Virus record (IMG/VR): IMGVR_UViG_2563366923_000001
Span: 1-21,431 of that record
Origin: a virus
Lineage: Duplodnaviria; Heunggongvirae; Uroviricota; Caudoviricetes
Length of the DNA stretch: 21,431 nucleotides
Direction: 5' to 3' (one strand)
A program made the position numbers and the translations under genes. The notes under the pieces were generated by a model. It had not been told where the DNA came from. It ran no database searches and saw only the letters and a program-made list of their open reading frames with translations. The stretch's first letter is position 1; each line of letters begins with the position of its first letter. Below are positions 1,534 through 20,848 of the stretch, piece after piece.

Positions 1534-1595
1534 ACGTACAACAAATTGAAATAAAAGGATTTATTTCTGGTCACGTCCACACATTGACCACATCG

Positions 1596-1630
1596 ACAAA
1601 AAAGCCCCTCGACTGAGGGGCTTTCTGTTT
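1596..1630. terminator. Bidirectional rho-independent terminator (GCCCCTC-GACT-GAGGGGC between an A6 run and a T-rich run); terminates ogr on the minus strand
   Basis: 7-bp GC stem at 1604-1610/1615-1621, preceded by AAAAAA and followed by TTTCTGTTT, 14 nt downstream of the ogr stop. Confidence 0.55.
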
Positions 1631-1634
1631 GTAA

Positions 1635-1853
1635 TTACATCCACATAATTTGCTGCCCTGACGGCAACGGGTGTGGCCTTACGGCGTGGACTTCTCCCGG
1701 CTTCACGATGTATCGCTGTACCGACTCATAAGTGATGAACGTGGCGCTGCAATTCACGTTCTGACACTGGTGATAACGCTCTTTTGTCGTGTCAGTGATA
1801 TAGCGGCTTGTACGCGCATGTGCGGCATGCTGGCATAAAGGACAATGAAACAT
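1635..1853 (-). CDS. ogr: Ogr, zinc-finger late-gene transcription activator (72 aa)
   Basis: Internal Met of the 93-aa track ORF gives MFHCPLCQHAAHARTSRY..., with CxxC...CxxxxC zinc-finger cysteines and length 72 aa matching P2 Ogr; ATG at 1853-1851. Confidence 0.9.
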   Translation of the reverse strand: MFHCPLCQHAAHARTSRYITDTTKERYHQCQNVNCSATFITYESVQRYIVKPGEVHAVRPHPLPSGQQIMWM

Positions 1854-1934
1854 CGCGAGCACCTCTTCCGGTTTTATTGATGGTGCCATTTTAGTTAATT
1901 TATCCTTATAAAACAAACAGATAAAATAAAAACA

Positions 1935-3098
1935 TCACTCATCATCTTCTGTTTCGTACTCCACATCAGAAAGCCTGACCTCAAGCTCTAAAGACGTCGT
2001 GAAGCCGCTATTATTCAGAAAATGTGTCACCTTAGTGATTGTCCAGTCCTGCTCGTCTATGACGCGCTTAAAGCCTGACACTTTAACCGGTGTTTCCGTG
2101 TAAATATCTGCCCGACCGGTAGCCAGGCTGATGGAGAACTCCGCCACACCCCGTTGCAGTTTATCCCACTTCGCCTGAGCGGCGCGCATGGCCTGCGCTT
2201 TCGTGGCATATACCGTAGTCAGGGCAAAAACGTTGTCAGCCTCACCGGCCATGTATTCACCTTCGCGCGCTTCCGGTACTTTTGGCGCTTTCTTCTGCGT
2301 GACCGGTTTCGCTTTCGGGTGCTCCAGTGCGCGCAGGTGTTTTTCTTTCTTTTTGCGTTTCAGTTTTACCTTCTGCTTTTGCGGCTTCGGGTCTTTGGTG
2401 TGTAACCACTTTGCCGTTACGCCGGTGTAAGCTCCACGGTCAGCAATCGCAAAATGATGACGGTCGCCGTCGCTGCGGGTGATGGTAATCTGCGGGATTT
2501 TTTTACCGCTGGCCGTCACCCCCTGCCCCGCTTTGAGAAACAACAGTTTTCCCATTTTTACCGACACCTCACCGCCGTTGCGTTCTGCAAGACGGGTCAG
2601 GAATTTCGCATCAGACTCCTGCGACTGGTCGATGTGCGGGATTTTAATTCCGGCCAGTGACGGAGCGACACTGGCTTCCAGCCTGTTACGGGAGGCTATC
2701 GCTTCAACAATCGCACCGAGTGTGGTGTCATGCCAGGAGCCTTCCCGGCGGGAATTGAGCGTCCCGCGAAAATCTGCACTCCGGGCGCGGATGGTGACCA
2801 CATCCGGCGCGCCCCGGTGTTCAACCTCATCAACGGTGAATTTCCCTTTGCATACCAGGGCAAAACCTTTCCAGCCGATATACACCGTCAGGACAGCGCC
2901 ACGAACCGGTAGCCCGACCTGCCCGTCGGCATCGTTCAGTTCAATATCAAGCTGGTCAGCCTCAAAGCCCCGGTTATCCGTCAGGGTCATGCTCATCAGA
3001 CGGTCGCTGATATTGCCGGTAATATCCCTGCTGTCGAGCATCAGCATGTAATCCGGCGTCAGCGTACTGCCTGCATCAAATGTCAGTGCATCCAGCAT
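1935..3098 (-). CDS. D: P2 gpD-like tail protein (387 aa)
   Basis: 387-aa ORF, same length as P2 gpD and in the conserved position between U and ogr; start ATG overlaps the U stop (TAATG). Confidence 0.88.
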   Translation of the reverse strand: MLDALTFDAGSTLTPDYMLMLDSRDITGNISDRLMSMTLTDNRGFEADQLDIELNDADGQVGLPVRGAVLTVYIGWKGFALVCKGKFTVDEVEHRGAPDVVTIRARSADFRGTLNSRREGSWHDTTLGAIVEAIASRNRLEASVAPSLAGIKIPHIDQSQESDAKFLTRLAERNGGEVSVKMGKLLFLKAGQGVTASGKKIPQITITRSDGDRHHFAIADRGAYTGVTAKWLHTKDPKPQKQKVKLKRKKKEKHLRALEHPKAKPVTQKKAPKVPEAREGEYMAGEADNVFALTTVYATKAQAMRAAQAKWDKLQRGVAEFSISLATGRADIYTETPVKVSGFKRVIDEQDWTITKVTHFLNNSGFTTSLELEVRLSDVEYETEDDE

Positions 3099-3577
3099 TA
3101 TCCCGCCCCCGTCATCCCCGTGAATCTGGTCGCCATACTGCCAGCTTTACCGATGAGCGATTCCGCCTGTTTACCGATATCGCCATAAAGCGCGGCCAGT
3201 GATTCATCAACGCGGGTGAGCGACAGCGTAAAATCAATTTTCCGGGGTGTGCCGTCTGCAAAGAAAATACTCCCTGTTTCACTTACCCTGCTGATGACAT
3301 ACATGCCGTAAATCATGCCGGTGCCATCCAGCAACGGCCACGCCCGGCCTTCATCTGCCATCAGCCTGAGCGTGGTCATCGTCAGCTTTCCGCCGGTCAG
3401 TTCGGGATAAAGCACACCGGCAAGCGTCATGTTTTCCTCACCCACACCGAGAAACTGGTAGGCCTCCCGTTTACCGATACGGGAATTTGACGGCCAGCGA
3501 TAATCTGATTCACGCTGCATGGTCTGGTGTGGCAGCGTCTGGCGCATAAAAACAAACATACCTAACGCGAGCATCAT
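3098..3577 (-). CDS. U: P2 gpU-like tail protein (159 aa)
   Basis: 159-aa ORF matching P2 gpU in length and position upstream of D. Confidence 0.82.
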   Translation of the reverse strand: MMLALGMFVFMRQTLPHQTMQRESDYRWPSNSRIGKREAYQFLGVGEENMTLAGVLYPELTGGKLTMTTLRLMADEGRAWPLLDGTGMIYGMYVISRVSETGSIFFADGTPRKIDFTLSLTRVDESLAALYGDIGKQAESLIGKAGSMATRFTGMTGAG

Positions 3578-3806
3578 TTTTCGTCACCTCCTTAACCGAA
3601 TCCGGGAAGCCACCGAGCGACCACTCCATTGACAGCGCATCGTCATCAAGGCCGAGGTCTACCGGTGCGCTGCCGTTCATCCCCGCACCGCGATAGTTTT
3701 CGAGCTTACGGGTCAGTTTTGGTAGCGTGACGGACTTCGCGACGCCCTGATAGCTGTAGCCGTTCAGAAAGACGTTCATTAACTTGAGTTTGCGCGGCAT
3801 TGCCAT
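3510..3806 (-). pseudogene. FII: Truncated tail tube gene FII (N-terminal about 72 codons fused to out-of-frame sequence upstream of U)
   Basis: ORF begins MAMPRKLKLMNVFLNGYSYQG... (tail tube N-terminus) but is only 98 aa against 172 aa in P2; its last about 27 codons read through the U start region in another frame; genes E, E' and T that lie between FII and U in P2 are absent. Confidence 0.7.
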
Positions 3807-5508: not shown

Positions 5509-7773
5509 ATGGGTTTGCAAAGCATAAGAATAAAAAACTTACTATCATTTAATGATGTAATAATAAATTCCCTAGAGGATGTAAATTGCATTGTAGGGAT
5601 GAATAATGTTGGCAAATCCAATCTTATGAAAATATTGAAATATTTTTACGACAAACTTGACGACATAAAAGTAATACCTCCTGATTTTCATTCTAGTTAT
5701 ACTCCTTCAGGGTCAATAACATTGACTTATGATGTAACAAGAATAAAGAGAATTGTAATGAACCCTAATAACAATGGTCGCTTTCACAAGCATATTTATA
5801 ACACTTTATTTAAGCCACAATCATTCATCCGAAAGCCGCAGAAATTCTGTCTTCCTTTCATATCTCCTTTGGGTTTCCAAAGAAAAAGCACTTATAGCAT
5901 TACACTCACAATTTCTAAAGATGACTCCGTAACTTGGTCAATTAGCACACCAAATGCCCGGCATCTAATTAAAACTCTATTTCCTTTTTTCCATATTGAA
6001 ACCAGACACATTGACTTATACGACTGGAATAGCATATGGAAAATGCTCAGCAGTATAAATTCCTTTAATTTCTCTGAAATAAAAAAAGAAGAACTCCTTG
6101 AGTTTTTGAATGAGAAAATATCAACTAAGCGGGGTAGTTACAAGAAGTATATAGAAAGAGTTGAAAATGTAATCCATACTAAACCTTACACCTATAAAGA
6201 TAAAGTCGTTAATTATCTAAAAATAGTTTTAGATGGCGATATTTTCATAAATAAAGGTGAAGAACTACATGTTCAGTCGGATGGCACGAACTCTCACAAA
6301 TATCTTGAAATTATACTTAGCCTATTAATTTCATTAACAAGAACAGAATTTATCAATCCAATTATATATATTGATGAACCTGAAATTGGGCTACATCCAA
6401 AACTTAGCGAGAACTTTATTGAGAACATAAGCCTGACATATAAAAAGTATGATAAAACCCATGAGGAAATTGAGCCTGGAAAATATTCAACACCATATCC
6501 AACTCTTATATTTAGCACTCATTCTCCGAGTTTACTAAAACTCACGCTAAAATCTTTCTTACATAAACAGCAGGTTTTGCATTTTTCAAAAGAACGTGAC
6601 AACTCGACCAAAATTTCAAAATTAAACTCTAAATATAATGACATTAGATTTATAAATATGCTTAGCGATAATGAGGCCCGTCTATTCTTTAGTGAATACA
6701 TTCTATTTGTAGAGGGCGCCACAGAAGTTGAATTGTTTAGAAATTATAATCTGCAAAAGCTGTTTCCAGTACTTAAAAGGTTAGATGTGTATGATTGCGA
6801 TGAAGTAATGTTGAAAAATATAAACCCCAGCTACTCAAATGCAGCCATCCCATTTCTAGTAGTAAAGGATATTGATCAGATTGCCGTTGTTGACTTCGAA
6901 CATGAACAATTTAAATTTAATTCGAAAGGGAAATCAATTATTAATAAAATCATTAAGAGAGATAAACTACACTATTTTTCGACATACCAAAAACCTTTTC
7001 TTAACGCAGCAAAATTTCTTTTAAGCCAAGATGAAAGGAAAGTAACATTCAGTGAAAATGGCCTAAAATTCAGACACTTCAGTATAGGCAGAGTTATAAG
7101 CGCAGTTAATTTTTTATCCTCTAAAGATAATGTTTATTATACTTCTACAACGATAGAAGGCTCATTGATCAATGAATTCTCTTTAGAGACATTCTCTTTA
7201 TGGATCATTGACATAGTAATGAGAAGCTTTAATGTAAATAATAAAAACCCTGTAAAAATGATTAATGCTCTGCTGCAAAAATACGATATTAAAACCCAAT
7301 CAAAACAACTTTTTCCCAAAATACTTTCAAAATGTGAAACAAATCATGACCTACCATTGCGACACATGAGATTATTGAAAATCATTAAAATTAGATATGC
7401 TAAAGAAATAATTGATGAGTTTAAAAAAACCATCCCCGACGTAAAAGACCAAGTTGCTATCTTGCGCCTTATTTTTAGTGGCAAAACAGAAACTCTTGTA
7501 AGTATAGAAATGCATTATAAAATTGATCAAAAACCGATACGGCAAGATATATTGGATTATATCAAAGCATTAAAGTCAGAAAATTTCTCTTTTATGAGTT
7601 CTTACATAGGAAAGACTTCTGGATGGGTTACAAGCTTCATTGATTTTAGCCTTAATCATTATTCAGCCCTAGATAAAGAAAATGTCGAAAAAAAATTCCG
7701 CTTGGCTTTTCCTGAAATTTCGCATATCATCGATCATGCTTCTTCTTCGATAGAAGCTGGAGGGCTCAAATGA
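5509..7773 (+). CDS. OLD-family nuclease-like protein: N-terminal ABC-type ATPase, central TOPRIM domain, about 300-aa unassigned C-terminal extension (754 aa)
   Basis: Walker A GMNNVGKSN near the N-terminus; Walker B/D-loop IIYIDEPEIGLHP; H-loop FSTHSP; TOPRIM glutamate motif LFVEGATEVELF and DxD-like VVKDIDQIA; AAGGAA RBS before the ATG; strongly AT-rich relative to the prophage backbone. Confidence 0.75.
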   Translation: MGLQSIRIKNLLSFNDVIINSLEDVNCIVGMNNVGKSNLMKILKYFYDKLDDIKVIPPDFHSSYTPSGSITLTYDVTRIKRIVMNPNNNGRFHKHIYNTLFKPQSFIRKPQKFCLPFISPLGFQRKSTYSITLTISKDDSVTWSISTPNARHLIKTLFPFFHIETRHIDLYDWNSIWKMLSSINSFNFSEIKKEELLEFLNEKISTKRGSYKKYIERVENVIHTKPYTYKDKVVNYLKIVLDGDIFINKGEELHVQSDGTNSHKYLEIILSLLISLTRTEFINPIIYIDEPEIGLHPKLSENFIENISLTYKKYDKTHEEIEPGKYSTPYPTLIFSTHSPSLLKLTLKSFLHKQQVLHFSKERDNSTKISKLNSKYNDIRFINMLSDNEARLFFSEYILFVEGATEVELFRNYNLQKLFPVLKRLDVYDCDEVMLKNINPSYSNAAIPFLVVKDIDQIAVVDFEHEQFKFNSKGKSIINKIIKRDKLHYFSTYQKPFLNAAKFLLSQDERKVTFSENGLKFRHFSIGRVISAVNFLSSKDNVYYTSTTIEGSLINEFSLETFSLWIIDIVMRSFNVNNKNPVKMINALLQKYDIKTQSKQLFPKILSKCETNHDLPLRHMRLLKIIKIRYAKEIIDEFKKTIPDVKDQVAILRLIFSGKTETLVSIEMHYKIDQKPIRQDILDYIKALKSENFSFMSSYIGKTSGWVTSFIDFSLNHYSALDKENVEKKFRLAFPEISHIIDHASSSIEAGGLK

Positions 7774-7893
7774 GCTGACGCATGCCGTCACTTGCTCCAG
7801 CAAACACTAGCTCGGATTGTCTTGCGTCCGCTAAGCCGCTTTAAGCCTCACGGGGTGTAAAGATGTTATTGGTATCGAAGAGGAAGCTTTTAC

Positions 7894-8991
7894 ATGAAAC
7901 ATAAAATTAATAAAATTAACAATGATTTTTATAAAAATTTTTATCTAAGAGAAACATTCTCCGATGATATTATTATGACTCACGGAGTCCCTGAGATTTC
8001 CAATGACGATTATAAAAGCATTTCATTAAAGAATAGATTATGTTTCACTATAAGAAAAAGCTCCCCGCATAAAAAAATACAAGAAAGACTTATAAAAAAT
8101 TTCCTAGTAAAAGTTCCTCTTAGCTCACCTGCAATTGCCTATCGTAAAAAATTAAACTATTTGAATTTTCTAGAACCTCATATCCATGGTGAGAACTTTT
8201 GTCGAATTGACTTATGTAATTTTTTTCATAACATAAACTATAACTTTGCAAGGGAGTGTTTCAAATCCTACTTTGAAGATGAATATCTGGTAAATAAAAA
8301 AATCAAAGTTATTGATGCATTTTTAAATAGTTTATCTATTGAGATTGTAGTCAACAATAAAAAGAAAAAAATATTTCCAATGGGATTCGCCACATCACCT
8401 TTCATATCCAATATAATTTTCAGAAAGTTAGATATTTTAATTAAAAGTTTGTGTGACAAAAGAAGCATCATTTACACTCGTTATGCTGATGATATGCTTT
8501 TTTCGAGCTCCGGGAAAGACAAACTTCTTGGAAGTGAACATTTTGACAACGAGATATCAACTATTGTCAATACGGCAGGACTGTCCCTCAACAAACATAA
8601 AAAAATATTTAAGAAAGGCATAATCTCACTAAACGGCTATGTAATAGAAAATAAAAATGGAGGGGGAGAGAGAGGGAGTATAAGAATATCTAATGGAAAA
8701 ATGTATTTAATACGGAAAGCACTAGATAAATTTAAAAAGGGATATTCTAAAGAGCATATTTGCAAAAAAGTATTTTCTGTTAAATCACCAACTGTCAAGT
8801 ATAATAACAATGCAGATCAGTTTGTAACGGATTTTTATAATTCACAATTCTCTAATAAGTTAGCTGGTTATCGTTCATATTTAATATCATTAGTAAAATT
8901 TAATGATAAATTCAGATGTTTTCACGAAAACGAAATCACCAAATACTCAGTGATTATTGATGAAATTTCTAATGCACTGCTAAAACCCTAG
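7894..8991 (+). CDS. Reverse transcriptase, retron/Abi-like (365 aa)
   Basis: RT motifs in order: RIDLCNFFHNI (motif 2 region), FPMGFATSPFISNIIF (motif 4, compare retron PQGxxxSPxLSN), YTRYADD (catalytic YxDD at 8482-8493), LSLNKHKK and ISLNGYVI (retron-like motif 6/7 region, but no canonical VTG); GAGGAAG RBS; AT-rich; no maturase or endonuclease domain. Confidence 0.8.
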   Translation: MKHKINKINNDFYKNFYLRETFSDDIIMTHGVPEISNDDYKSISLKNRLCFTIRKSSPHKKIQERLIKNFLVKVPLSSPAIAYRKKLNYLNFLEPHIHGENFCRIDLCNFFHNINYNFARECFKSYFEDEYLVNKKIKVIDAFLNSLSIEIVVNNKKKKIFPMGFATSPFISNIIFRKLDILIKSLCDKRSIIYTRYADDMLFSSSGKDKLLGSEHFDNEISTIVNTAGLSLNKHKKIFKKGIISLNGYVIENKNGGGERGSIRISNGKMYLIRKALDKFKKGYSKEHICKKVFSVKSPTVKYNNNADQFVTDFYNSQFSNKLAGYRSYLISLVKFNDKFRCFHENEITKYSVIIDEISNALLKP

Positions 8992-9413
8992 CCTTAGAAA
9001 GTTAATGTTTTGGCCCTAAAGCAAGGGCCTTAATAGTAAAAATAGTTACCAGCATAAGTATTCCTTCAACTAATCACACAAATTAACGTTAGCAACGTTC
9101 CCTTTTTACACCGTCTGAGCACTAAGCTGTCGGTCATTCTGGTCTACCATACTATTATACGTAACATCCAAGAGTGTTCCTGCAAACGGTCGTAGAAAAT
9201 GCGGGCTTCGCCATTTTCTGGCCGACGCCGGTCTCGTCGAGTTCTTCTGACTGTTCAAGTGCAAATGCGCCTGTAGGTATCCCTACAAAAGAAACCATCA
9301 ACTTTTAGATAGTATCTGGCACTCCAACTCCCGCTGTTGACTCGGAGCGGACTGTCAGATTAGGCTTTACTCTGTACCATAGATACGTTAGCTCACTCCA
9401 GAGATCATACAAC

Positions 9414-9941
9414 TTATTGCGGCATGTCCGGCCATTCAGGATTTGAAGGGTCCACACGACTGACCAGAACGCTGTAGCGTTCCCATGCATCCAGTCGACT
9501 GCGCTCCTCACCTGTTGCCATATTCAGCCTGACAGCGCGCTCCAGCGGCAAAATTACGGATTCAGCTTCGGAAAGCAAAGCTGCCTTATGTAATTCCGCT
9601 AGTTTCTGCTGTTCGTCTGCCGTATAAATCCGCTTAATCACGGCACCATCCTTAAACATCCATTTACCTGAGTCATCAGCACGCCGGTTGGCAGTAATAT
9701 CAGGAACCTCAACGACGCTAAAACCTTCAGGATTAAGCGTTGAAGCATCTCTGGTGATGGCGACAATAATATTATTTTCATCGTAAACAATCTTTATTGT
9801 GTCTGGCTGAAAATTACTTACTTCCTCATACCAGTTTTTTCCGTCTTCGGACCATAACCAGATAACATCAAAATTCTTTGTTAGCTGATATTGCTCTTTT
9901 GTTTTTGGATTACCTGACTTAATGTTCTTTAAATGCTGCAT
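9414..9941 (-). CDS. G: P2 gpG-like tail fibre assembly protein (175 aa)
   Basis: 175-aa ORF matching P2 G in length, immediately downstream of the tail-fibre gene remnant. Confidence 0.8.
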
Positions 9942-9944
9942 TAC

Positions 9945-11030
9945 TTACACCTGCGCAACGTTATACCATGTGCCATTGATGTATTTTTGTATCGGCCTGA
10001 AGATGGCCTCATCATCGCCATCTACTTCACCAATGATTCTTAATCCGGTAATCGTGTGTCCGGCTTTTTCATAACGACCACCTCGCGCCATCAATTGAAC
10101 AACTCGCGTACCCAGGCGAACATCTTTCACATAGCGGGAATCAAAATTCCCCCAGTTGCTGGGTTGCATCTGACCGTTAACAGCAAATATTACCGAGTTA
10201 TCTGTATTTCGCTGGCTATAGAAATGCCATCCGGACTCATCGCCTAACTCTGCAACCACTGGACGGTTGGAAGCACCCCATAAATTAAAGGTAATATTCT
10301 TCGTGGATGTGTTAGAGCTGGATAGCGAGAACTTTTTACTATCCCCTGCCTGAATATTTTTAAAAGCAATAGCCACTCCATTCTGAAAACGGAATACACG
10401 CTGACTGTTAGCATAAACATCAAGAATACCGTCTCCATTCTGTTTAAATCCGGTATCATTATCACCAAGGACAATAGAGCTACCACCTAGTGCATTCGTC
10501 GTACCAACTCCAAGACAGCCATTAATGACGGCATTAACAAGAATATTTAGTGCATCCCATTTCAGCGTCATCAGGTCTTTTGTTGTGGTACTCTGGCGGC
10601 TTCTCCATTTGAAATATTCATTGCCGTTATCCCCCGTTTCAAACCACATGTATGAATCAGCGTCACCATCGGCATCATTTTTAAATCCAATCTTCGCCCA
10701 GTCAGTATTTCGAATCCAGGCAAGGATTGAGTCGTTTTCAAAAGTAATCCCGCCGGACAAGGTATCGCCATTCTTTTGCACCGCGTTCCTGGCCCTGTTT
10801 ACCGTTTCCTGCAAACCGAGGTATTCGATAACGGCAGCAATGGTCGCTTTAGCCAGAATATCCCGCCCGACTTTTGTCAGGGTTGCCAAACTGGCAACAT
10901 CATTCCCCGTAAAATACGGAAAGCTGTCTGCCGCAGTAGCAAGCCCCGCCAGCGCCGTCAGAGTGGCATCTTTCGGTTGCTTACCCGCAAGCGCATTAGT
11001 CATGGAGGTAGCAAAATTCGGGTCTCGGCC
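9945..11030 (-). pseudogene. H: Tail fibre gene H remnant (C-terminal half, about 360 codons) lacking its N-terminal half
   Basis: Reading frame continues upstream of Met 11003 as ...DPNFATSMTNALAGKQPK..., which I recognise as an internal H region; upstream of about 11027 the frame decodes nonsense that overlaps J in another frame. P2 H is 669 aa. Confidence 0.72.
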
Positions 11031-11860
11031 AGCGGTGCAGTCAGTTCGACACGCTGCACGCCTTCCACATGCAAAGCGGCATAAATGGCAGACAGACGGA
11101 TGTCGCGCCCCAGCCGGTGCTGTGCCGTGATGTACGCTTCCAGTTTTTTCACGGCAGCAGCGCGTATGGGTTCGCTTTCGGGACCAGGGTAAAGGTAAAG
11201 CGTGGCGTTTATCTGGTATTCAACGATGGCGGCAGACTGCACGGTCACGCGGTCGGCCACCGGCCTGACGTCCTCGCCATTAAGGGCGTTACGCACCACC
11301 GCCAGCAGGTCTTCGGATGCGACACCGTTATTTTCACGTGACAGCACAGAGATGGTGACGCAGGCCGGAGACGGACTGGTTACAGAAATATCCGCGACAC
11401 GCCCGTCGGCACTGCGACCATGATACTGATAGGCCCCCACCGACCCGGCGACGCTTAAACCTTCAAACGCCTGCTGAATACGCAGACGATAATCCGTGTC
11501 AGATTCCATCACTGCCGGTGTCGGCGGGATGGTCGAATCATCTTCCAGGGTGATAATCAGGCGCGTGGTGTTGTAATTGGCACCAATCACATCAAGGTCA
11601 TTACCGGCAGCACAGGCCAGCATCACCGCCCGTGCGGCCTCATTCACACGCTGACGCCAGATAAGCTCACGATAAGCATTTTCCTCCAGCAGTTTGACGA
11701 GAGGCTCAGATTCCAGCGTCAGGGTACGGGCGACCGCCTCCTGCTGGTCTTCCGGGTAAAGGGAAATCAGTGTCGCCTTGCGTTCGGCAAGAATGGTTTC
11801 AAAGTCCAGCTCCTCAACCACATCCGGTGCGGGTAGCTGGTTCAGGTCGATAATCGGCAT
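11000..11860 (-). pseudogene. J: Baseplate gene J with altered/truncated C-terminus (286 aa against 302 in P2); gene I absent
   Basis: ORF starts MPIIDLNQLPAPDVVEELDF... (J N-terminus); the last about 8 codons (ETRILLPP) read into H-derived sequence; the stop overlaps the H-frame Met (ATGA). Confidence 0.62.
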
Positions 11861-11864
11861 GGTT

Positions 11865-12212
11865 TCAACTCACAGGAATGGTTAACGAAAGTGGCTGGCC
11901 GGTGTCGTTGTGCTGGCCGGTTAACGTGACCGTCATTCGCCCGTCAAAACTGCGCTCAGTGGTGACGGATGACAGGGTGACGCGGGGTTCCCATTTCAGC
12001 ACCGCCATGTAACAGGCGACCTTAATCTGCAACTCAAGCGCCGGGGTCTGCGGCTGGTCAATCATTGACGCCAGCAACGAGCCGTAATCACGACGCATCA
12101 CCCGCGAGCCGACCGGTGTGCGCAGGATATCGCCGATACTCTGGCTGATATGCTCAAGGTCAGTGACAGTCAGGCCATCACTGCGATTCATTCCGAGATA
12201 ACGCGCAGTCAT
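11865..12212 (-). CDS. W: P2 gpW-like baseplate protein (115 aa)
   Basis: 115-aa ORF, same length and position as P2 W (between V and J). Confidence 0.82.
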   Translation of the reverse strand: MTARYLGMNRSDGLTVTDLEHISQSIGDILRTPVGSRVMRRDYGSLLASMIDQPQTPALELQIKVACYMAVLKWEPRVTLSSVTTERSFDGRMTVTLTGQHNDTGQPLSLTIPVS

Positions 12213-12565
12213 AGAGGTCCCCCTGTTGTGCCGCCGCTGTCGCCGGGGTGTTTATGGGTATGAAGTACCTTACCGTTTGATGAGAGTTCACCGCCGGTGT
12301 GTTCAATGTTGCCGCGCATCGTCCCGCCCTTCTGCACTTCCAGCGTGCCGGTAATCAGCCTGTTGGTGCAGACCACCTCCGGTGTGTCCAGGGTGACGCG
12401 GGTTGATGCTTTCACCATGACCACCGGCACCGTGGCGGTAACAGAATCAGAAGCCGTCACGCTGGCCGTTTTAATTCCGCTTACCGTAAGTGCACTGGTT
12501 TCGGGTTCATACTCAATCATCGCTGCCGAGACCCGCATCATGTGGCGCTGTGCGGGACTCGTCAT
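12209..12565 (-). pseudogene. In-frame M'-V' fusion remnant: first about 16 codons of terminase small subunit gene M joined to the C-terminal about 100 codons of baseplate spike gene V
   Basis: ORF begins MTSPAQRHMMRVSAAM (recalled as the gpM N-terminus) then continues IEYEPETSALTVSGIKTASV... (V C-terminal region); 118 aa against 211 aa for V; sits directly after the N stop, where M starts in P2. Confidence 0.62.
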
Positions 12566-12568
12566 CGG

Positions 12569-13060
12569 TTACGCTCCCGGCTCTGCGGTCGCTTTAGCCG
12601 GTGTGGAGAAATCACCGACCTTAATTTTTTCCACCAGACAACCGGCGGCGTAGTCCTCCACCACGTAATCAATGTTCATTGACTCGTAGTTCTCCACGCG
12701 ATCGAGTTTCGGGTTTTCCTCAATCACGCGGCGATGGCTGTCATCCATGTAGTAGATGGACAGGTTTTCCAGCTTCGTGATGAGCATCGCATCAGCCGGG
12801 AAGTACGGGACGCGTACCGCTGGCAGGTTGCCGATGCGTTTCTGGCTGATGATGACGTCAGCGGCCAGCATTTCGCTGTTGTCCTGCTCCTTGTTGACGA
12901 TGGGAAAATACTTGTCCGCCAGTAGCTGACGTCCCACAATCACCACAAGGTCAGGGTCTTCCTGATACCACGGCTCAATCAGGTTGTTGGTCGCATCCAT
13001 CACCAGTGCATCAAGGCTGGCATAATCACCGCCCTTATCCGTTCTGGTCGGGTGAACTGT
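12569..13060 (-). pseudogene. N: Major capsid gene N remnant (C-terminal about 157 codons only)
   Basis: Frame reads ...KGGDYASLDALMMDATNNLIEPWYQEDPDLVVIVGRQ... to the stop at 12569; an upstream in-frame stop at 13061-13063 and no N-terminal about 200 codons; P2 N is 357 aa. Confidence 0.68.
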
Positions 13061-14051
13061 TCAACCGGGGACGCGCCAGCGCCGCCGAACGCGTGGAAAT
13101 CGACGTCAGTCATAACGCCCTTGCCGGTGGGCTTCTCTGTGCGGACGGCCAGTGGCGGCAGATTGTCACCATTGAGGACGCCCTGAAAGGTGGCTGCACG
13201 CTGTTCGACATTGAGCAGCTTAAACGCGAAAACAGCGCCGACGATTTTAAAAACCTGTTCATGTGTGAATTTGTTGACGACAAGGCGTCGGTATTTCCCA
13301 GCAGGATTTCAGCCGCTTTGTGCTGGATTTTCTGGTGTTCGGCAATGCGTTTCTGGAAAAGCGTTACAGCACCACCGGTAAGGTCATCAGACTGGAAACC
13401 TCACCGGCAAAATATACCCGCCGTGGCGTGGAAGAGGATGTTTACTGGTGGGTGCCGTCCTTCAACGAGCCGACACCTTTCGCGCCCGGCTCCGTGTTTC
13501 ACCTGCTGGAGCCGGATATTAATCAGGAGCTGTACGGCCTGCCGGAATATCTCAGCGCCCTTAACTCTGCCTGGCTGAATGAGTCGGCCACTCTGTTCCG
13601 CCGCAAGTATTACGAAAACGGCGCACATGCCGGATACATCATGTACGTCACGGATGCCGTGCAGGATCGCAACGATATCGAAATGCTTCGCGAAAACATG
13701 GTGAAGTCGAAAGGCCGCAACAACTTTAAAAACCTGTTTCTCTATGCCCCGCAGGGAAAAGCCGACGGCATTAAAATTATCCCGCTCAGTGAAGTGGCGA
13801 CGAAGGACGATTTTTTTAATATCAAAAAAGCCAGTGCCGCAGACCTGCTGGACGCGCACCGCATCCCCTTTCAGTTGATGGGCGGCAAGCCGGAGAACGT
13901 CGGGTCGCTGGGCGATATTGAGAAAGTAGCAAAGGTCTTTGTCCGCAATGAGCTTATCCCGTTACAGGACAGGATCCGCGAGATAAACGGCTGGCTCGGT
14001 CAGGAGGTCATCCGATTTAAAAACTACTCACTGGACACTGACAACGGCTGA
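13040..14051 (+). pseudogene. Q: Portal gene Q remnant: no start codon, reading frame switches near 13280-13300
   Basis: C-terminal 243 codons (13320..14051, frame 3) are an intact portal-like sequence; the N-terminal part is in frame 1 (track ORF 13006..13578); frame 3 has a stop at 13275-13277; frame 1 upstream of about 13040 is antisense to N; position next to cos fits P2 Q. Confidence 0.62.
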
Positions 14052-14056
14052 ACATC

Positions 14057-14078
14057 GCCGCCTGCGGGCGGCTTTTTT
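14057..14078 (+). terminator. Rho-independent terminator after Q (GCCGCC-TGCG-GGCGGC plus TTTTTT)
   Basis: 6-bp GC stem and T6 tract beginning 6 nt after the Q stop codon. Confidence 0.7.
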
Positions 14079-14220
14079 ACACCCCGTCATCACGCCCTCA
14101 CACGTTCGCCACTGTACAAAACACCCCGCAGACACACCAACGCCCCGGCAGGCCGACTAAACGCCATCACGACGCGCTCAGACGCTGAAAAAATAAAATC
14201 AGCACCACCGCCAGCGCGCA

Positions 14221-14239
14221 GTGCTTTCCCCGCCTCGCC
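14221..14239. other. P2 cos cohesive-end sequence (reverse complement of GGCGAGGCGGGGAAAGCAC)
   Basis: GTGCTTTCCCCGCCTCGCC at 14221-14239 matches the 19-nt P2 cohesive end as I recall it, and sits where cos lies in a P2 prophage (between Q and the tin/old region). Confidence 0.72.
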
Positions 14240-14331
14240 CGCCCGCTTCATGGGGCGGTTTTAATGCAGTTACATAGATACTATGGATCCGCACCAGTCC
14301 TGACCGCACGCAGCCTGAACGGACATCCCCG

Positions 14332-14365
14332 ACGCATGCAAAAACATTCACTTGTTGCATGCAAC
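14332..14365. promoter_or_regulatory. Tandem GCATGCAA palindromic motifs (CGCATGCAAA at 14333-14342; perfect palindrome TTGCATGCAA at 14355-14364) upstream of the 313-aa cargo gene; candidate operator/promoter
   Basis: Read directly from the sequence; the two sites are 23 bp apart; a related ATGCATGCAA occurs at 16698-16707 upstream of the divergent cargo operon. Confidence 0.35.
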
Positions 14366-14477
14366 GGCTTATTTAATGACAAATCAACTTAAATTTACAA
14401 AATCCACAGGTATGGATACTTTGCGAACATGATAGGCTTACGAGAATTATCGTGCCTGTTTTTGAACGGAGAAAGTT

Positions 14478-15419
14478 ATGCAAGGTGAAGTTGACGAACA
14501 GCAACCAAATGAGATTATTTCGGAGTTTGGATACTATCCAGTAGAAGTTAACATTGAGACTGAACAATTTTCTTTGCGTACTTTACCCGGTCTTATTGAG
14601 AAAGTGGAACGTATTAACAATGATAAAAACGTTGTTAATGGTTGGATATACCCTGGGAATCGAAAGGTATATAACCTTAATGGTGACACATGCACAATGC
14701 CTTATAGTTACCGAGTATTCGGCATGCCCAAAACGCACACACTAAAATTAAAAAACACATCCTCGTTAGAAACTCTCAACTTTGTTGTGTGGTGCCTCTC
14801 TTTTTTCAAGGGTATAAGATTGACAACCACTGACGCTGGTTTTCTTGATGCAACCACTATCAAGCCCACTAAGTTAACCGACTTTATTCTCGTTGGATGC
14901 TCTGAAAAAGAAGTAATAGAGCTAGCACTTAACTATATAAAAGACAAACAAAAAGATGATCGCTCCATTAAAAGAATAGCTGCGGTGATACACTCCCTAT
15001 TCCTGTCACATAACCCACTATACCTTTCCTTTGAGAAATTCCAGTATCTTTATATGGCTCTTGATTGCTGTTTTGCTATAGCATGGGATGAAAGGGATAA
15101 AGTCATTAAAGAGAAAAAACCATCTCATCAAAATAGAGTATATTGGACGTGCGAAAATTACGGTGTAAAAATCCCGTCATGGGCAACAGATGAATGTAAT
15201 GTTTCAGTTATACGCAATGATAATTTTCATGAAGCCATTTTTAATGGGCAACCGCTTGGTTTCTCTAGTATCAATGATTGTCAATATGGTAGCGATATAT
15301 TGCTACAAATGCAGGCTCTGGTATGTCGTCTACTAGCGGCAATACTCTCTGTAAATGATCGTAAATATATCGCATCTACAATCAGCTCGATAGAGTACCA
15401 TTCATTAAAATTAACTTAA
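14478..15419 (+). CDS. Hypothetical protein (313 aa), AT-rich cargo at the tin/old position; no recognisable motifs
   Basis: Long ORF with a GGAG RBS 8 nt before the ATG; composition contrasts with the prophage backbone; first gene after cos. Confidence 0.6.
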   Translation: MQGEVDEQQPNEIISEFGYYPVEVNIETEQFSLRTLPGLIEKVERINNDKNVVNGWIYPGNRKVYNLNGDTCTMPYSYRVFGMPKTHTLKLKNTSSLETLNFVVWCLSFFKGIRLTTTDAGFLDATTIKPTKLTDFILVGCSEKEVIELALNYIKDKQKDDRSIKRIAAVIHSLFLSHNPLYLSFEKFQYLYMALDCCFAIAWDERDKVIKEKKPSHQNRVYWTCENYGVKIPSWATDECNVSVIRNDNFHEAIFNGQPLGFSSINDCQYGSDILLQMQALVCRLLAAILSVNDRKYIASTISSIEYHSLKLT

Positions 15420-15491
15420 TGCTAACGCCTCACTTCGCTCGTTGTTCAACCCCGCCAGCCTGAAAACAAGTTTCACGACTGGCGGCGTTCT

Positions 15492-15644
15492 CTATCGTCT
15501 GCGTGGTGGTGGCGCAACTCTGGACTGACCGATATAGTTAAACCGCCCGTAATTATCCCGGACTATTTCGGCACACCCGACCAGCTCGTCAGGCGTCAGA
15601 TTTTCGTTGACCATAATCTGCTGTAAACGGTGAACAATGGCCAT
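15492..15644 (-). CDS. Possible small ORF (50 aa, MAIVHRLQQIMVNENLTPDELVGCAEIVRDNYGRF...), function unknown
   Basis: ATG-to-stop ORF below the track size cut-off, with an in-frame upstream stop and a weak AGG-type RBS; backbone-like GC content; could be a remnant of a phage gene. Confidence 0.2.
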   Translation of the reverse strand: MAIVHRLQQIMVNENLTPDELVGCAEIVRDNYGRFNYIGQSRVAPPPRRR

Positions 15645-15738
15645 CAACCTGACACTTTTGGTGTTATATGTGGTATCTCACATGAGATTACTGACCAAGG
15701 TGCATCTTGGTTGACTCATTTCATATCCATCCACACCA

Positions 15739-16419
15739 CTACATCTTTATTGCATATTTATTAAAAGACGCCCAGTTCAATAAAAAAACATTATTCATAT
15801 ACCATTCAATATGATTTTTATTTTTAGATTGACTGTCAAGTAGCACACAAACATCAACCTGTTTATCAATCAATTTTGCAATATAAACCACAAACTCAAC
15901 ACTCGAATATCTCTTTGTGCCTAGCAAATATAATATTTCATCTGACAAATAATTAGACTCATGTGAAAAGACATTATCATTTAACAAAATCAACCCGCCA
16001 ATCGAGTCATTTAAATCCAAAACATCCTTTGTTGCATTTATTTGCTTATTAGCTTCCTTAACTATCTTTGTTTTAATATTTTCATAAGCAAAGTTCATTA
16101 TATCATTTCTAAATCGCTTTGAGTCTGGGTGTCTTTTTATCAACTCTTCTAAATGAATAGCACCATGCCAGTTTTTTGCAAGCCAACTATCAGTTTTAAC
16201 CAACTCATTCAGTTTATCATTGACATTCTTGACCCTGTCAGAAAAAAGACTTTTCATCTCCAAAATTATCTTTTTATTATCAATAAGATAATCTGCCATC
16301 TTGCGATTCTGACCATCCTTCATCCGGAACTTATGATGAATATCATCAATAGAAATCCCTTTTTCATGCTCAACAATGAATCTCTTAACATTGTTTTCTA
16401 ATTCGCTGTATTGTTTCAT
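15739..16419 (-). CDS. Hypothetical protein (226 aa), AT-rich cargo; no recognisable motifs
   Basis: ORF with a strong GGGGGAAAG RBS; 27 nt downstream of the DUF2158 gene on the same strand (operon-like). Confidence 0.6.
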   Translation of the reverse strand: MKQYSELENNVKRFIVEHEKGISIDDIHHKFRMKDGQNRKMADYLIDNKKIILEMKSLFSDRVKNVNDKLNELVKTDSWLAKNWHGAIHLEELIKRHPDSKRFRNDIMNFAYENIKTKIVKEANKQINATKDVLDLNDSIGGLILLNDNVFSHESNYLSDEILYLLGTKRYSSVEFVVYIAKLIDKQVDVCVLLDSQSKNKNHIEWYMNNVFLLNWASFNKYAIKM

Positions 16420-16446
16420 ACTTTCCCCCGTGAATTTTATTATGAT

Positions 16447-16638
16447 TCACTTACGTGGACGACACAGCATACCACTTTTACTCTCTGCTATTTCCAGTAA
16501 ATCAATGGAGAATGACTCCTCGTGCAAAACTCCTTCTTTATCATGCCAAATACATTTCGCATGAGTTTCAGTAGAGTCAGATACAGTCATTTTAAATCCA
16601 CCGCTTTTCAAACAAACAACATCTGCAGGCTTTAACAT
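16447..16638 (-). CDS. DUF2158 / YodC-like small protein (63 aa)
   Basis: Internal start MLKPADVVCLKSGGFKMTVSD... with GGAG 7 nt upstream; the DVVxLKSGGxxMTV signature resembles YodC-family small proteins; the track ORF 16447..16722 over-extends the N-terminus. Confidence 0.55.
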   Translation of the reverse strand: MLKPADVVCLKSGGFKMTVSDSTETHAKCIWHDKEGVLHEESFSIDLLEIAESKSGMLCRPRK

Positions 16639-16764
16639 TTTTGTCTCCAACATTTTTAAGTAATGCATTATAACATAATGATATTGACGTAGATTTAATG
16701 CATGCAACCATATAAAAAACAATCAATTACAGTCAAAACTACTTATACTGTATAGATGAGATCC

Positions 16765-17781
16765 TTACTCAAATTGATGCCAGAATCCCGACCACTCATC
16801 AGCGACCGGATACGTGAATTTTTTCCCGTCATAATTTACGGTCGCGCCACGCGCCAGCGCCTCAAGCTCCCATCGCTGCGGCCTGATACCGTTCTGAGCA
16901 AGGTCAACGCGGATACGGGTGATTTGCAATCGTTCAGACCGGGTCAGTCTGGCCGATGGCGCTATTTCATGTGGTTTTAACGGGCTTCCGTTTCTTTGCT
17001 GACGATTTGGTGTTTTCAGGCCGTGTTTTAATGCACCCCTGAGCGTCCTCACGACCTCCGGGTCATTCCATTCGATAACACCGTCATCAACCAGATTTAG
17101 CACTGCTGCGGCGTGTTCAGAAGGTGTGGGAGCCGGTAACGAAGTATCACCACCGGTGAGCTTTCCACAGTTATTGACAGGACTCCGAGGCGCGGCGATG
17201 CCGCTTTTTAACGTCAAAGGCTCAACGACCGGCACTTTCGGCACAATGCGCCAGTCCGTCGTTCTGGTGATATGAATATGACGCGCGCCGAGATGCGGCG
17301 CGTAAATGCCGACCACTCTCTCGACCTCTTCCTCGTACTCGTTAACGTCATCCGACGGGCTACGGGCAACCCTGACAGTCTGACAATCGCGCGGAACATT
17401 TGCCCCACCCTGCGCGCTGATATACAACGCAAAATCACCACTGTCTGCGGCAGCGCGTGCAGCCTCGACGCGTTCGTCAAACTCATCAGCAATGCTGACG
17501 CCGCGAGGCAATTTGCGTAGTTCACGGTAAGCCCCCATTGTCGGCAGACCAACCGTTTTAAATTGCGGAATGCGCCACGTTGACGCCCATGCGGTAACAG
17601 CAGCAGCTGTGTCTTTCAGCGGCCTGCCGGTATCATTATCGAGCTGACCATCCAGTGCATAGCCGTCGATGTTTTTTGAGATGTATTTCGCGATATATCC
17701 CGCAGCACCGCCCCGGTTAAGATGTTTTGTTGTTCCTGAATAAAATCTACGTTGTCCGGCATTATCAGCTCCTTTTATCGT
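16765..17781 (-). pseudogene. A: Replication initiator gene A remnant (C-terminal about 335 codons, with the YIAKYISK active-site region, but no N-terminal about 430 codons and no start codon)
   Basis: Frame is open from 17781 to the stop at 16765 and reads ...KHLNRGGAAGYIAKYISKNIDGYALDGQLDNDTGRPLKDTAAAVTAWASTWRIPQFKTVGLPTMGAYRELRKL...; the rolling-circle Rep Y-x-x-K-Y motif is present; no in-frame start before Met 17538; P2 A is 761 aa. Confidence 0.68.
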
Positions 17782-18067
17782 TCAGTTTCTTAAATTCATC
17801 AGCGCAATAGCTGGCGATTTCTGTCATTAATTTCGTCAGTTCATCCACGGAGGAGATTTGCTTGTGGAATACAGCGCGTTTAACAAGTAAATTGACCACC
17901 TCAGACAGGAGGTTTAATTCATTCTGATAAATCGCGATAACAGATTCAGTTATGTCGCGTTTTTCTTTATCAAGACAAAGTTGAATAAGAGACAAATCAC
18001 CATTTTCCATAACGGCGATTTTTAAGGCGTTATTCAGTAATACAACTGAATGAGAACAGGACATCAA
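17765..18067 (-). CDS. Hypothetical phage early-region protein (100 aa)
   Basis: ORF in the B-to-A interval, where P2 carries small orf80-83-type genes; start overlaps the stop of the upstream 74-aa ORF (ATGA). Confidence 0.45.
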
Positions 18068-18288
18068 AGTACCTCCCCGCGAGACAATCCGATATTGTGA
18101 AATTTTTCCGACTCCTGACTGAGCAGCTCGACTATCTCCACGCGGGATAACTCCGCCTTTGTGATGTGGCGAATCATGGCGTCAAGATGAGAAGAAAAGC
18201 GCGTCGCAGCGTCGGCCTGTGCTTCGGTTCTGGCCTGTTGCAGCAGTAATGCGTATTTACCGCACTGATTTTCAGAAACTGTATGCAT
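18064..18288 (-). CDS. Hypothetical phage early-region protein (74 aa)
   Basis: ORF translationally coupled to the downstream 100-aa ORF; lies in the early operon between B-like and A. Confidence 0.45.
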
Positions 18289-18351
18289 GACTTTCTCCAG
18301 GCAAAAAGAAGCCCCGCACGATTAAGTGCGTTAAAAACTCTGGTTAATTAC

Positions 18352-18858
18352 TTAATGCAGATATTGCTCTGGTTTTACCGACGTCAGAATTGTCGGTGCA
18401 TACTCAAACAGGCTGAATAATTCACGTAATGCACGGAATAAAGCATCACGCCAGTAACATGATTCTTCATTAATTCGCCAGTATGGCTGGTTGAATTCTT
18501 TTTCAGTCAATCCGGCATGCATAAATAAAGTACGACGCTGACTGACTGTTAAAAAACTAATATATGCATACTCACTTGCGCCAACCTGACGGCGTTTTGA
18601 GAATGCCCCACGCAATTCATCAATTGCACATACCAGTCGTTCACGTTCGACGTCGTTCATTTCTTCAAAACACATCGTTGCGTGACGCTGTTTTAACTGA
18701 GCATGGAAGCAAACCGTTAACCGTTCGCGCTCCATCATCTGATTATAATAATCACATGTATCCTGCCAGCGAGGAACGGCAAGATGCTTACCAATTATCC
18801 GGCGCATAGCTGCTGGCTGTTTTTCAACGAGATTGAGCGTCATCACTGTCATTTCCAT
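18352..18858 (-). CDS. B: P2 gpB-like replication protein (168 aa)
   Basis: Size (168 aa against 166 aa for P2 B) and position (cox - small ORF - B - small ORFs - A) match the P2 early operon; the sequence itself was not independently recognised. Confidence 0.55.
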   Translation of the reverse strand: MEMTVMTLNLVEKQPAAMRRIIGKHLAVPRWQDTCDYYNQMMERERLTVCFHAQLKQRHATMCFEEMNDVERERLVCAIDELRGAFSKRRQVGASEYAYISFLTVSQRRTLFMHAGLTEKEFNQPYWRINEESCYWRDALFRALRELFSLFEYAPTILTSVKPEQYLH

Positions 18859-19019
18859 ACCCTCCGGCTTTTCAGAAAGGTCAGAGCCTTTTTTAACGGA
18901 CTCTGTTTTTTGGTGCGGATAATGATTCCCTTACGCCCCTTACCGTGGGTGATGGTGAAGTCAATCGCCCTGGGGCTTTCGTTACGCAGTAACTGAGCAA
19001 TACAACGAGGCTCATTCAT
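18849..19019 (-). CDS. Small early-operon ORF (56 aa; orf78-position)
   Basis: Internal Met at 19019 preceded by an AGGAGAA RBS; lies between cox and the B-like gene. Confidence 0.35.
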   Translation of the reverse strand: MNEPRCIAQLLRNESPRAIDFTITHGKGRKGIIIRTKKQSPLKKALTFLKSRRVWK

Positions 19020-19029
19020 ACGGTTCTCC

Positions 19030-19305
19030 TTAACGTGGTTCACCGAGACCTAACCACATCAACCAGCCGTCACGAATCTCTTTAGGGCGGCTTTCATAAG
19101 CCAGTTTTAGTCCGTTATTCCATGCCGGAAGGTATACCCAATATTCACCTGCACGACCTGAAGCTGATTGTGGATCGGTCATATCAATTACAGGCAGCTT
19201 TCCTTTATCGATCATCCGACGAACCGCTCCTGTCGATTTTCCTATTAGTTTTGCGAACTCCTGATAAGGAATCGCATCAGTCATGAGTGTTACTTGCTTG
19301 CTCAT
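19030..19305 (-). CDS. cox: Cox, excisionase / early transcriptional regulator (91 aa)
   Basis: 91-aa ORF recognised as P2 Cox (MSKQVTLMTDAIPYQEFAKLIGKSTGAVRRMIDKGKLP...), divergent from C. Confidence 0.9.
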   Translation of the reverse strand: MSKQVTLMTDAIPYQEFAKLIGKSTGAVRRMIDKGKLPVIDMTDPQSASGRAGEYWVYLPAWNNGLKLAYESRPKEIRDGWLMWLGLGEPR

Positions 19306-19419
19306 GTCGTCCTCTAGCCCTCATGAATTGCGTTTAATGTCTTATAATGCCTTTTAGTGCCCACATCCAAGCACTAAACAATCTACATCTAAACTAAATA
19401 CTATTGAGATCTAAACACC
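19306..19419. promoter_or_regulatory. Divergent Pe/Pc switch region with two direct operator repeats ATCTAAAC (19387-19394 and 19409-19416, 22 bp centre-to-centre)
   Basis: Intergenic region between divergent cox and C; 8-bp direct repeats two helical turns apart, as described for P2 C operators; TTATAAT element at 19342-19348. Confidence 0.6.
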
Positions 19420-19719
19420 ATGTCAAACACGATAAGCGAGAAGATAGTCTTAATGCGAAAATCAGAGTATTTGAGCAGACAACAACTTGCTGATTTAACA
19501 GGGGTTCCGTATGGCACGCTGAGTTACTATGAAAGTGGTCGTTCAACACCTCCAACAGATGTCATGATGAACATCCTGCAGACCCCACAATTCACCAAAT
19601 ACACTTTATGGTTCATGACCAATCAGATCGCTCCTGAGTCCGGGCAAATTGCGCCCGCTCTCGCACACTTTGGGCAAAACGAAACAACGTCGCCCCACTC
19701 CGGTCAAAAGACTGGTTAA
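19420..19719 (+). CDS. C: Immunity repressor C (99 aa)
   Basis: 99-aa ORF, same length as P2 C, divergent from cox and upstream of int. Confidence 0.88.
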   Translation: MSNTISEKIVLMRKSEYLSRQQLADLTGVPYGTLSYYESGRSTPPTDVMMNILQTPQFTKYTLWFMTNQIAPESGQIAPALAHFGQNETTSPHSGQKTG

Positions 19720-19834
19720 CAATTCATCGTGAATATATTCATCACAAGTGCCTACTATTGGTGGCTAAATTTCAGCCACCACGAAAAAAGCGATTAGTAG
19801 TCGCAAAAAAACACACCACTCGGAGGGTTTTCTG

Positions 19835-20848
19835 ATGGCAATCAAAAAACTCGATGATGGTCGATATGAAGTGGACATCCGCCCTACTGGACGTAATGGA
19901 AAACGCATCCGTAGGAAGTTTGATAAGAAAAGCGAAGCTGTCGCTTTCGAGAAATACACGTTGTACAACCACCACAATAAAGAATGGCTATCAAAACCAA
20001 CAGACAAGCGACGTCTGTCGGAGCTGACACAGATCTGGTGGGATTTAAAGGGTAAACACGAAGAGCATGGGAAATCTAATCTTGGAAAAATTGAAATCTT
20101 CACAAAAATAACGAATGACCCATGCGCATTTCAAATTACGAAATCGCTTATCAGCCAGTACTGCGCCACCCGAAGAAGTCAGGGTATTAAACCTTCGAGT
20201 ATCAATCGTGATTTAACATGTATTAGCGGCATGTTTACAGCCCTGATTGAAGCGGAGTTATTCTTTGGTGAGCACCCTATCAGAGGGACAAAAAGGCTTA
20301 AGGAGGAAAAACCAGACACAGGCTATCTCACGCAGGAAGAAATTGCCTTACTGCTTGCTGCTCTTGACGGCGACAACAAAAAGATTGCGATTCTTTGCCT
20401 GAGTACTGGAGCACGTTGGGGAGAAGCAGCTCGTTTGAAAGCAGAAAATATCATCCATAACCGCGTCACGTTTGTTAAAACGAAAACAAACAAACCACGC
20501 ACCGTCCCGATCTCAGAGGCTGTTGCCAAAATGATCGCGGATAACAAACGAGGTTTTTTATTCCCTGATGCTGATTACCCTCGCTTCAGACGAACAATGA
20601 AAGCAATAAAACCGGATTTGCCAATGGGGCAAGCCACACATGCACTAAGGCACAGCTTTGCCACTCATTTCATGATTAATGGAGGAAGTATTATCACGCT
20701 ACAACGGATACTAGGTCACACGCGGATTGAGCAAACTATGGTTTACGCTCATTTTGCGCCAGAGTACCTTCAGGACGCCATTTCTCTTAATCCGCTAAGA
20801 GGTGGTACTGAGGCCGAGAGTGTCCACACAGTGTCCACAGTAGAGTAA
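19835..20848 (+). CDS. int: Tyrosine integrase (337 aa)
   Basis: 337-aa ORF (P2 Int length) with the C-terminal tyrosine-recombinase signature (…HALRHSFATHF…LGHTRIEQTMVYAHF…); GGAGGG RBS; adjacent to the att core. Confidence 0.9.
   Translation: MAIKKLDDGRYEVDIRPTGRNGKRIRRKFDKKSEAVAFEKYTLYNHHNKEWLSKPTDKRRLSELTQIWWDLKGKHEEHGKSNLGKIEIFTKITNDPCAFQITKSLISQYCATRRSQGIKPSSINRDLTCISGMFTALIEAELFFGEHPIRGTKRLKEEKPDTGYLTQEEIALLLAALDGDNKKIAILCLSTGARWGEAARLKAENIIHNRVTFVKTKTNKPRTVPISEAVAKMIADNKRGFLFPDADYPRFRRTMKAIKPDLPMGQATHALRHSFATHFMINGGSIITLQRILGHTRIEQTMVYAHFAPEYLQDAISLNPLRGGTEAESVHTVSTVE

Follow-up and report, generated by a model that had tools for sequence, protein, structure and literature searches.

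The window, i.e., the whole stretch of 21,431 nucleotides that was analysed, corresponds to the yegQ/cyaR–yegR (trhP(yegQ)–yegR) interval of the Escherichia coli chromosome with a P2-like prophage inside. The attachment-site flanks are trhP/yegQ and CyaR on one side (1-1530) and yegR on the other (21114-21431). Homology to P2 starts at 1507 and stops at 20954 (the attP core), which places the integration at a P2 attachment site. The CyaR/RyeE small RNA was located at 1445-1530 on the plus strand (Rfam RF00112, 100.7 bits). The prophage end (attL) overlaps the 3' end of cyaR, as fits the known P2-type site near yegQ. At the nucleotide level, ten collinear blocks of 94-99% identity to P2 (NC_001895) identify the element as a defective member of the P2-like phages (Peduovirus). 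The closest intact relative is the P2-like prophage of E. coli UPEC85 (NZ_CM137000.1), which occupies the same chromosomal site and shares eight collinear blocks of 96-99.8% identity with the window. Gene order is the same in the window, UPEC85 and P2, namely ogr-D-U-T-E-FII-FI-[retron]-G-H-I-J-W-V.

The window was compared by blastn with the UPEC85 prophage (L001) and with P2 (L002), which gave a chain of blocks separated by gaps in the reference. Against UPEC85, window 1-3598 corresponds to L001 501-4098, 3593-11048 to 7321-14777, 11025-12523 to 16157-17655, and 12517-13040 to 22205-22728. The chain continues with 13036-13298 (L001 25293-25555) and 13294-14302 (26466-27474). After a segment unrelated to L001 (14303-16782), it resumes with 16783-17729 (29507-30453) and 17728-21431 (32220-35922). 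The present analysis is centred on the second of the breaks in this chain, where the baseplate gene J runs into the tail-fibre gene H.

Four genes on the minus strand surround this break. W (11865..12212, 115 aa) is intact according to the ORF list and collinearity, and lies upstream of a truncated J, here called J' (11000..11860, 286 aa). As delimited by translation, alignment to the J of P2 and UPEC85 and Pfam, J' consists of gpJ residues 1-278 of 302, followed by eight out-of-frame codons (ETRILLPP) contributed by H DNA. Its stop codon is the TGA at 11000-11002, and its C-terminal end reads ...VELTAPLAETRILLPP*. The initial annotation had J ending eight codons past the junction in just this peptide, and translation and alignment agree with it. 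The retained part is well conserved: residues 1-278 are 98% identical to gpJ, and 273-274 of the first 279 residues are identical to those of P2 and UPEC85. The Baseplate_J domain (PF04865) is still recognised by Pfam (83.5 bits, residues 118-261). J' is not a native full-length J, as ETRILLPP replaces residues 279-302. Among the other members listed of its 90% cluster (4121 members), 14/14 are 302 aa long.

Downstream of J' lies H' (9945..11003, 352 aa), which alignment and Pfam identify as the C-terminal half of the tail fibre. It starts at an internal methionine of H and begins with MTNALAGKQPKDATLTALAGL..., while H-derived DNA extends further, up to 11024. From this base, the H frame reads DPNFATSMTNALAGKQPK... 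The same frame upstream of 11024, in J DNA, contains neither a stop nor a start codon, so that the first start available to H' is the ATG at 11003. The H' protein is 100% identical to residues 274-625 of UPEC85 H and corresponds to residues 318-669 of P2 H; retained H and P2 H match at 344/353 aligned positions. The aspartate of DPNF at the junction is residue 311 of P2 gpH (669 aa) and residue 267 of UPEC85 H (625 aa). The full-length H proteins of P2 and UPEC85 carry the N-terminal tail-collar fibre domain (PF12571, Phage_tail_fib) and the fibre repeat (PF03406, Phage_fiber_2) in Pfam, whereas H' has neither and matches Gp34_trimer only, with the distal part also retained. Thus, what is left of the P2-type tail fibre is its C-terminal half together with the assembly (chaperone) gene G, the N-terminal domain of gpH being absent. 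G (9414..9941, 175 aa) follows H' directly and is intact, as indicated by the ORF list, the Caudo_TAP Pfam match in identical loci and collinearity with UPEC85 and P2. The stop codon of J' and the start codon of H' (11001-11003) overlap as ATGA, because the internal ...TCC ATG ACT... of H is read here in the J frame. In annotations, J' (ELD72748.1) and H' (WP_001547472.1) are best labelled as pseudogene fragments.

A base-by-base three-way comparison with J and H of UPEC85 and P2 places the deletion junction at 11024..11025 on the minus strand. The final J-derived base is 11025 and the initial H-derived base is 11024, and the sense strand reads ...GTCGAACTGACTGCACCGCTGGCCGA|GACCCGAATTTTGCTACCTCCATGACTAATGCG... 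across the joint. At the breakpoint, parental J reads ...GAACTGACTGCACCGCTGGCCGAC ATCGTG..., parental H reads ...GAGCTGGCGGCGGCGCTGGGCAAT GACCCGAATTTT..., and the window reads ...GAACTGACTGCACCGCTGGCCGA GACCCGAATTTT... Both flanks match P2 and the intact UPEC85 prophage at 94-99.8% identity (E = 0). In a megablast search of 50,697 phage records, H and G of P2 matched window 9900-11034 at 97% identity, and P2-type J and W matched window 11025-11900 at up to 97.5%. As judged from these alignments, a single clean breakpoint that joins J codon 279 to H codon 311 (P2 numbering) is supported. A joint between J and mid-H had already been proposed, at about 11027; the joint is real and the base-level alignment moves it to 11024/11025. 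With 11024 as the first H base, the open frame upstream of it is indeed J read in another frame, as had been suggested.

The DNA lost at the joint comprises 24 codons from the end of J, the entire gene I (176 aa) and the N-terminal 310 (P2) or 266 (UPEC85) codons of H. In UPEC85 and P2, J is complete (302 aa) and is accompanied by I (176 aa) and by an H of 625 or 669 aa, respectively. Relative to UPEC85, the deletion took 1404 bp (J codon 279 to H codon 267; L001 14753..16156), and relative to P2 it took 1536 bp (J codon 279 to H codon 311; P2 12128..13663), both lengths being derived by hand from block coordinates and offsets. The J-I-H alignment to P2 thus reveals one breakpoint, with I and the N-terminal half of H missing from the window, as first described. 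The earlier estimate of about 310 lost H codons holds in P2 numbering, but becomes 266 when the 625-aa H of UPEC85 is taken as reference, and the 24 C-terminal residues of J have to be added to the losses listed at the time. A relocation of the lost parts within the window was rejected: tblastn searches of the whole window with I of P2, the N-terminal half of H (from P2 and from UPEC85) and the C-terminus of J returned nothing better than E = 0.5. Neither an intact I nor an H N-terminus is therefore present in this interval or elsewhere in the window. Identity to UPEC85 drops exactly at the junction, from 99.84% over FII'-FI-retron-G-H' to 97.7% over J'-W-V'. This step suggests that the parent was a mosaic relative of the UPEC85 phage with a recombination boundary inside the deleted 1.4 kb. 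The step is also a point against the reconstruction of the event, UPEC85 being an approximate stand-in for the parent.

The J/H junction is the second of at least six internal deletions in the remnant. The T'/FII' junction (3593-3598) has a TAACCG microhomology and lost 3228 bp. The V'/M' junction (12517-12523) lost 4556 bp and is joined in frame, creating an M'::V' fusion ORF of 118 aa (12209..12565, minus strand). Further deletions are found at N'/P' (13036-13040, 2569 bp lost), P'/Q' (13294-13298, 915 bp lost) and A'/orf82' (17728-17729, TG microhomology, 1768 bp lost). The V'/M' deletion extends from within V (P2 10628) to the edge of M (P2 5206, just inside the gene); it removed the N-terminal part of V, the PV late promoter and the genes from S to L. 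Across the whole remnant, deletion or truncation has affected T, E, FII, I, H, J, V, S, R, the lysis genes, X, L, M, N, O, P, Q and A. Intact genes are ogr, D, U, FI, W, G, int, C, cox and B, plus the Eco8 retron. Since genes for the virion and for replication are deleted or truncated, it is predicted that a virion cannot be built. The cos junction is kept at 14221-14268, where P2 coordinates 1 and 33593 abut, and the remnant therefore still carries the packaging site; terminase and portal are truncated.

The junction is inherited in many isolates. Exact-sequence look-ups recovered 16 contigs with J', 10 with H' and 14 with the M'::V' fusion, from sources that include NCBI assemblies, SRA runs assembled by Logan and a metagenome assembly of ENA. 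The NCBI carriers include E. coli KTE233, in which the locus lies on a 4.9-Mb scaffold (KB732580.1). Of the nine loci obtained in the first of these look-ups, eight match the window at 100% identity along as much as 20.4 kb, and the ninth differs only by 6 gap positions. All J', H' and M'::V' contexts long enough to be judged carry every deletion, and no intermediate with some but not all deletions was found among these exact look-ups. None of the 50,697 phage records spans the junction by megablast. Likewise, no junction-spanning sequence was found in 5426 complete E. coli genomes, of which 2126 have a match to one flank or the other. Intact J-I-H is the norm, and the junction is a heritable feature of a clonal lineage, confined to one clone. 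The recurrence of the same junction sequence in many assemblies and runs argues for such a clonal feature and against an artefact. That several deletions occur in one prophage could raise the suspicion of a collapsed or chimeric contig, but nothing specific points to it. The same junction sequence was recovered from at least nine loci in different NCBI assemblies, an ENA metagenome and independently assembled SRA runs, which makes an assembly or sequencing artefact extremely improbable.

The immediate surroundings of the breakpoint give hints on how the deletion arose. On the J side lies a patch of imperfect similarity to H (11025..11047, minus strand; J GAACTGACTGCACCGCTGGCCGA(C), H GAGCTGGCGGCGGCGCTGGGCAAT). 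Directly 5' of the parental breakpoints, J and H agree at 16/24 positions, in the same register and codon phase, and these 24 nt translate as ELTAPLAD in J and ELAAALGN in H. Among the 11.3 million position pairs of the V-G operon, a fraction of only 5.2e-5 reaches 16/24 or better; as the 24-nt test window was picked after the sequence had been seen, this value gives no more than a rough idea of the rarity of the patch. The breakpoint was searched for short direct repeats, as had been recommended. No exact repeat or microhomology spans it in the comparison of five J and four H-bearing loci, and the similarity present consists of the imperfect in-register match (16/24) and a GAC common to both sides. 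Near the junction, direct and inverted repeats amount to short two-copy matches, of the kind flagged by the search tool as often due to chance. All five J sequences examined read CTGGCCGACAT and are constant at the breakpoint. Three of the four H-bearing loci read GGCAATGACCCG, and strain 405 has GGTAACGACCCG. The GAC at the site is common to all J and H sequences examined. A parental variant offering an exact microhomology was considered and rejected, as J is constant and the H variant of strain 405 creates no repeat.

In E. coli, deletions at short homologies may arise by RecA-independent illegitimate recombination. The five other base-mapped junctions of the remnant all show microhomology, measuring 6 bp (TAACCG), about 7 bp (a single mismatch included), 5 bp, about 5 bp and 2 bp, which fits this type of recombination. 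Hence, the J/H junction is very probably the scar of a spontaneous decay deletion in a P2-like prophage, made by homeology-assisted illegitimate recombination. We infer that about 1.4-1.5 kb of the late V-W-J-I-H-G operon were lost in a single spontaneous deletion from a prophage resident at the cyaR/yegQ–yegR site. The deletion would have proceeded independently of RecA, by replication slippage or microhomology-assisted end joining, with the 24-nt patch guiding the joining and the shared GAC at the breakpoint. As the joint is out of frame, J' would have come to stop after eight foreign codons, and the H remnant would have survived as an ORF starting at an internal methionine. As in the E. coli short-homology deletions attributed to slippage or end joining, the breakpoints lie in or beside short, partly imperfect matches. 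Unlike in typical cases, the J/H match is imperfect (16/24), the joint is blunt and there are two extra bases compared to a GAC-mediated joint.

These two bases count against a one-step event and are the starting point of a two-step competitor. A joint mediated by GAC would read CCGACCCG and produce an in-frame J::H fusion, whereas the window reads CCGAGACCCG, longer by two bases (GA), so that the fit to one-step slippage is imperfect. It is conceivable, though clearly the less probable history, that a GAC deletion (J ...GCC GAC / H GAC CCG...) initially yielded an in-frame J(1-279)::H(312-end) fusion. A GA duplication (CCGAC to CCGAGAC), to which the same low but appreciable probability is attached, would later have shifted the frame and created the present J' stop and the separate H' ORF. 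The GAC common to both parents, the codon register shared by J and H within the patch and the window sequence CTGGCCGAGACCCG, exactly 2 nt longer than the GAC-mediated joint, would all agree with this history. It requires two events where one suffices, and the in-frame intermediate (CTGGCCGACCCGAAT) was found in no isolate, every recovered copy being identical. On grounds of parsimony, a single imprecise joint beside the homeologous patch is favoured over the two-step route. Site-specific recombination by an invertase of the Din family (Gin/Cin-type) acting on tail-fibre crossover sites has a practically negligible probability. H' does contain a gix/cix-like 26-mer, TTCCTGCAAACCGAGGTATTCGATAA, at 10806-10831, with 3 mismatches to the Gin/Cin consensus (0 expected by chance), but it lies about 195 nt from the breakpoint and is the sole copy in the window, in P2 (13857-13882, in H) and in UPEC85. 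J, I and the H N-terminus provide no partner site, no invertase gene is annotated in the intact relatives, and no such Pfam domain occurs in the loci identical to the window. Tail-fibre switching by a Din invertase takes two sites and an invertase, and a site-specific origin of the junction was thus ruled out. The lone site is probably a vestige of the ancestry that P2 H shares with the invertible tail-fibre genes of Mu and P1. A tandem arrangement in strain 405 (NZ_CM132947.1, L014 2928-4388) was also considered. In this other P2-like prophage, arranged as J-I-H'/'J-I-H-G, a frameshifted H fragment of about 287 codons is joined to J at about codon 103. The tandem was rejected as the reciprocal product of the deletion, as the breakpoints differ: its J joint is the one at about codon 103, and in H it lies about 60 nt further downstream than the breakpoint of the window. 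It is either an unrelated event, perhaps a genuine duplication, or the result of misassembly in a draft-quality chromosome.

The remaining question is whether J' and H' still serve a purpose. With the loss of the PV late promoter, both are most probably silent relics that now do nothing, and without a virion to assemble into, neither would have a role. PV (10239-10266 with start at 10308 in the P2 feature table) lies within the interval removed by the V'/M' deletion, and the PO/PP region (P2 3016-3127) is deleted as well. A promoter scan upstream of J' and H' found no sigma-70-like site on the minus strand between 11003 and 14400, and no Shine-Dalgarno sequence precedes the ATG of H', the upstream sequence being GCTACCTCC. 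A functional J'/H' pair, coupled through ATGA, that yields a free receptor-binding half-fibre with its chaperone G and is kept by selection, is very unlikely, and roles suggested for it, e.g., a recombination cassette or an adsorption blocker, are just as doubtful. Intact reading frames are the one thing that would speak for such a coupled pair: H' and G are uninterrupted, and H' equals the C-terminal 352 residues of a full-length H without a single difference. The stop/start overlap could in principle couple translation of H', given a read-through transcript. Nevertheless, H normally carries this methionine in its interior, the overlap is a consequence of the frame shift, and ribosome-binding and promoter signals are missing as described. 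The tail-collar fibre domain of the full-length protein is also absent from H', and no signal of selection is present, because all copies are identical. Marginally less probable still is the fuller version, in which the coupled pair would supply a baseplate-less, G-folded P2 half-fibre retained for the benefit of the host. If it were true, the half-fibre could block the receptor for incoming P2-like phages or act as a host-range cassette for recombination.

Reading J' and H' as relics of decay agrees with what is found in related elements. Defective (cryptic) P2-like prophages of E. coli, such as the ogrK–yegZ P2 remnant next to cyaR/yegQ in K-12, share with the window the chromosomal site (yegQ/cyaR–yegR) and the phage family, the blocks of the window being 94-99.8% identical in nucleotides to P2 and UPEC85. 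Compared to the K-12 remnant, that of the window is much larger (about 19.4 kb), has at least six separate deletions, and has kept int, C, cox and ogr intact. Defective P2-like prophages that combine pseudogenised core genes with conserved defence genes have been reported as a class (PMC13586616). As in those elements, the core morphogenesis and replication genes of the window are inactivated and the defence cargo, retron Eco8, is intact (PMC13586616). The window is an example of this class, and the junction is an ordinary decay scar.

The retron is of type I-B (Eco8 family) and occupies the accessory slot between G and FI on the plus strand (5509-8991). PADLOC recognises an ATPase-Toprim effector (5509-7773, plus strand, E = 1e-210) and a reverse transcriptase (7894-8991, plus strand, E = 3e-106). 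The retron is intact, with 99.8% nucleotide identity to that of the UPEC85 prophage. Its msr/msd RNA was not located, as no Rfam family matched at the gathering score. The slot between gpA and gpQ, a described defence hotspot of P2-like phages (PMC9122126), carries cargo (14303-16782) unrelated to old/tin of P2 and to the cargo of UPEC85. It includes an ORF of 313 aa (14478-15419, plus strand) and one of 226 aa (15739-16419, minus strand). Both lack Pfam and PADLOC matches and are candidates for uncharacterised defence genes.

On its own, the J/H junction matters little, but it documents one step in the decay of a P2-like prophage to the base. To judge by the sequences compared, we infer that a short imperfect similarity between J and H, rather than chance, would have set the breakpoints. 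The remnant as a whole is more informative: at least six independent short-homology deletions have hit virion and replication genes, while Eco8, the immunity genes and the integrase are intact and clonally inherited. Such a pattern of decay has been described in general terms in work on the P2/P4 defence hotspots (PMC13586616).
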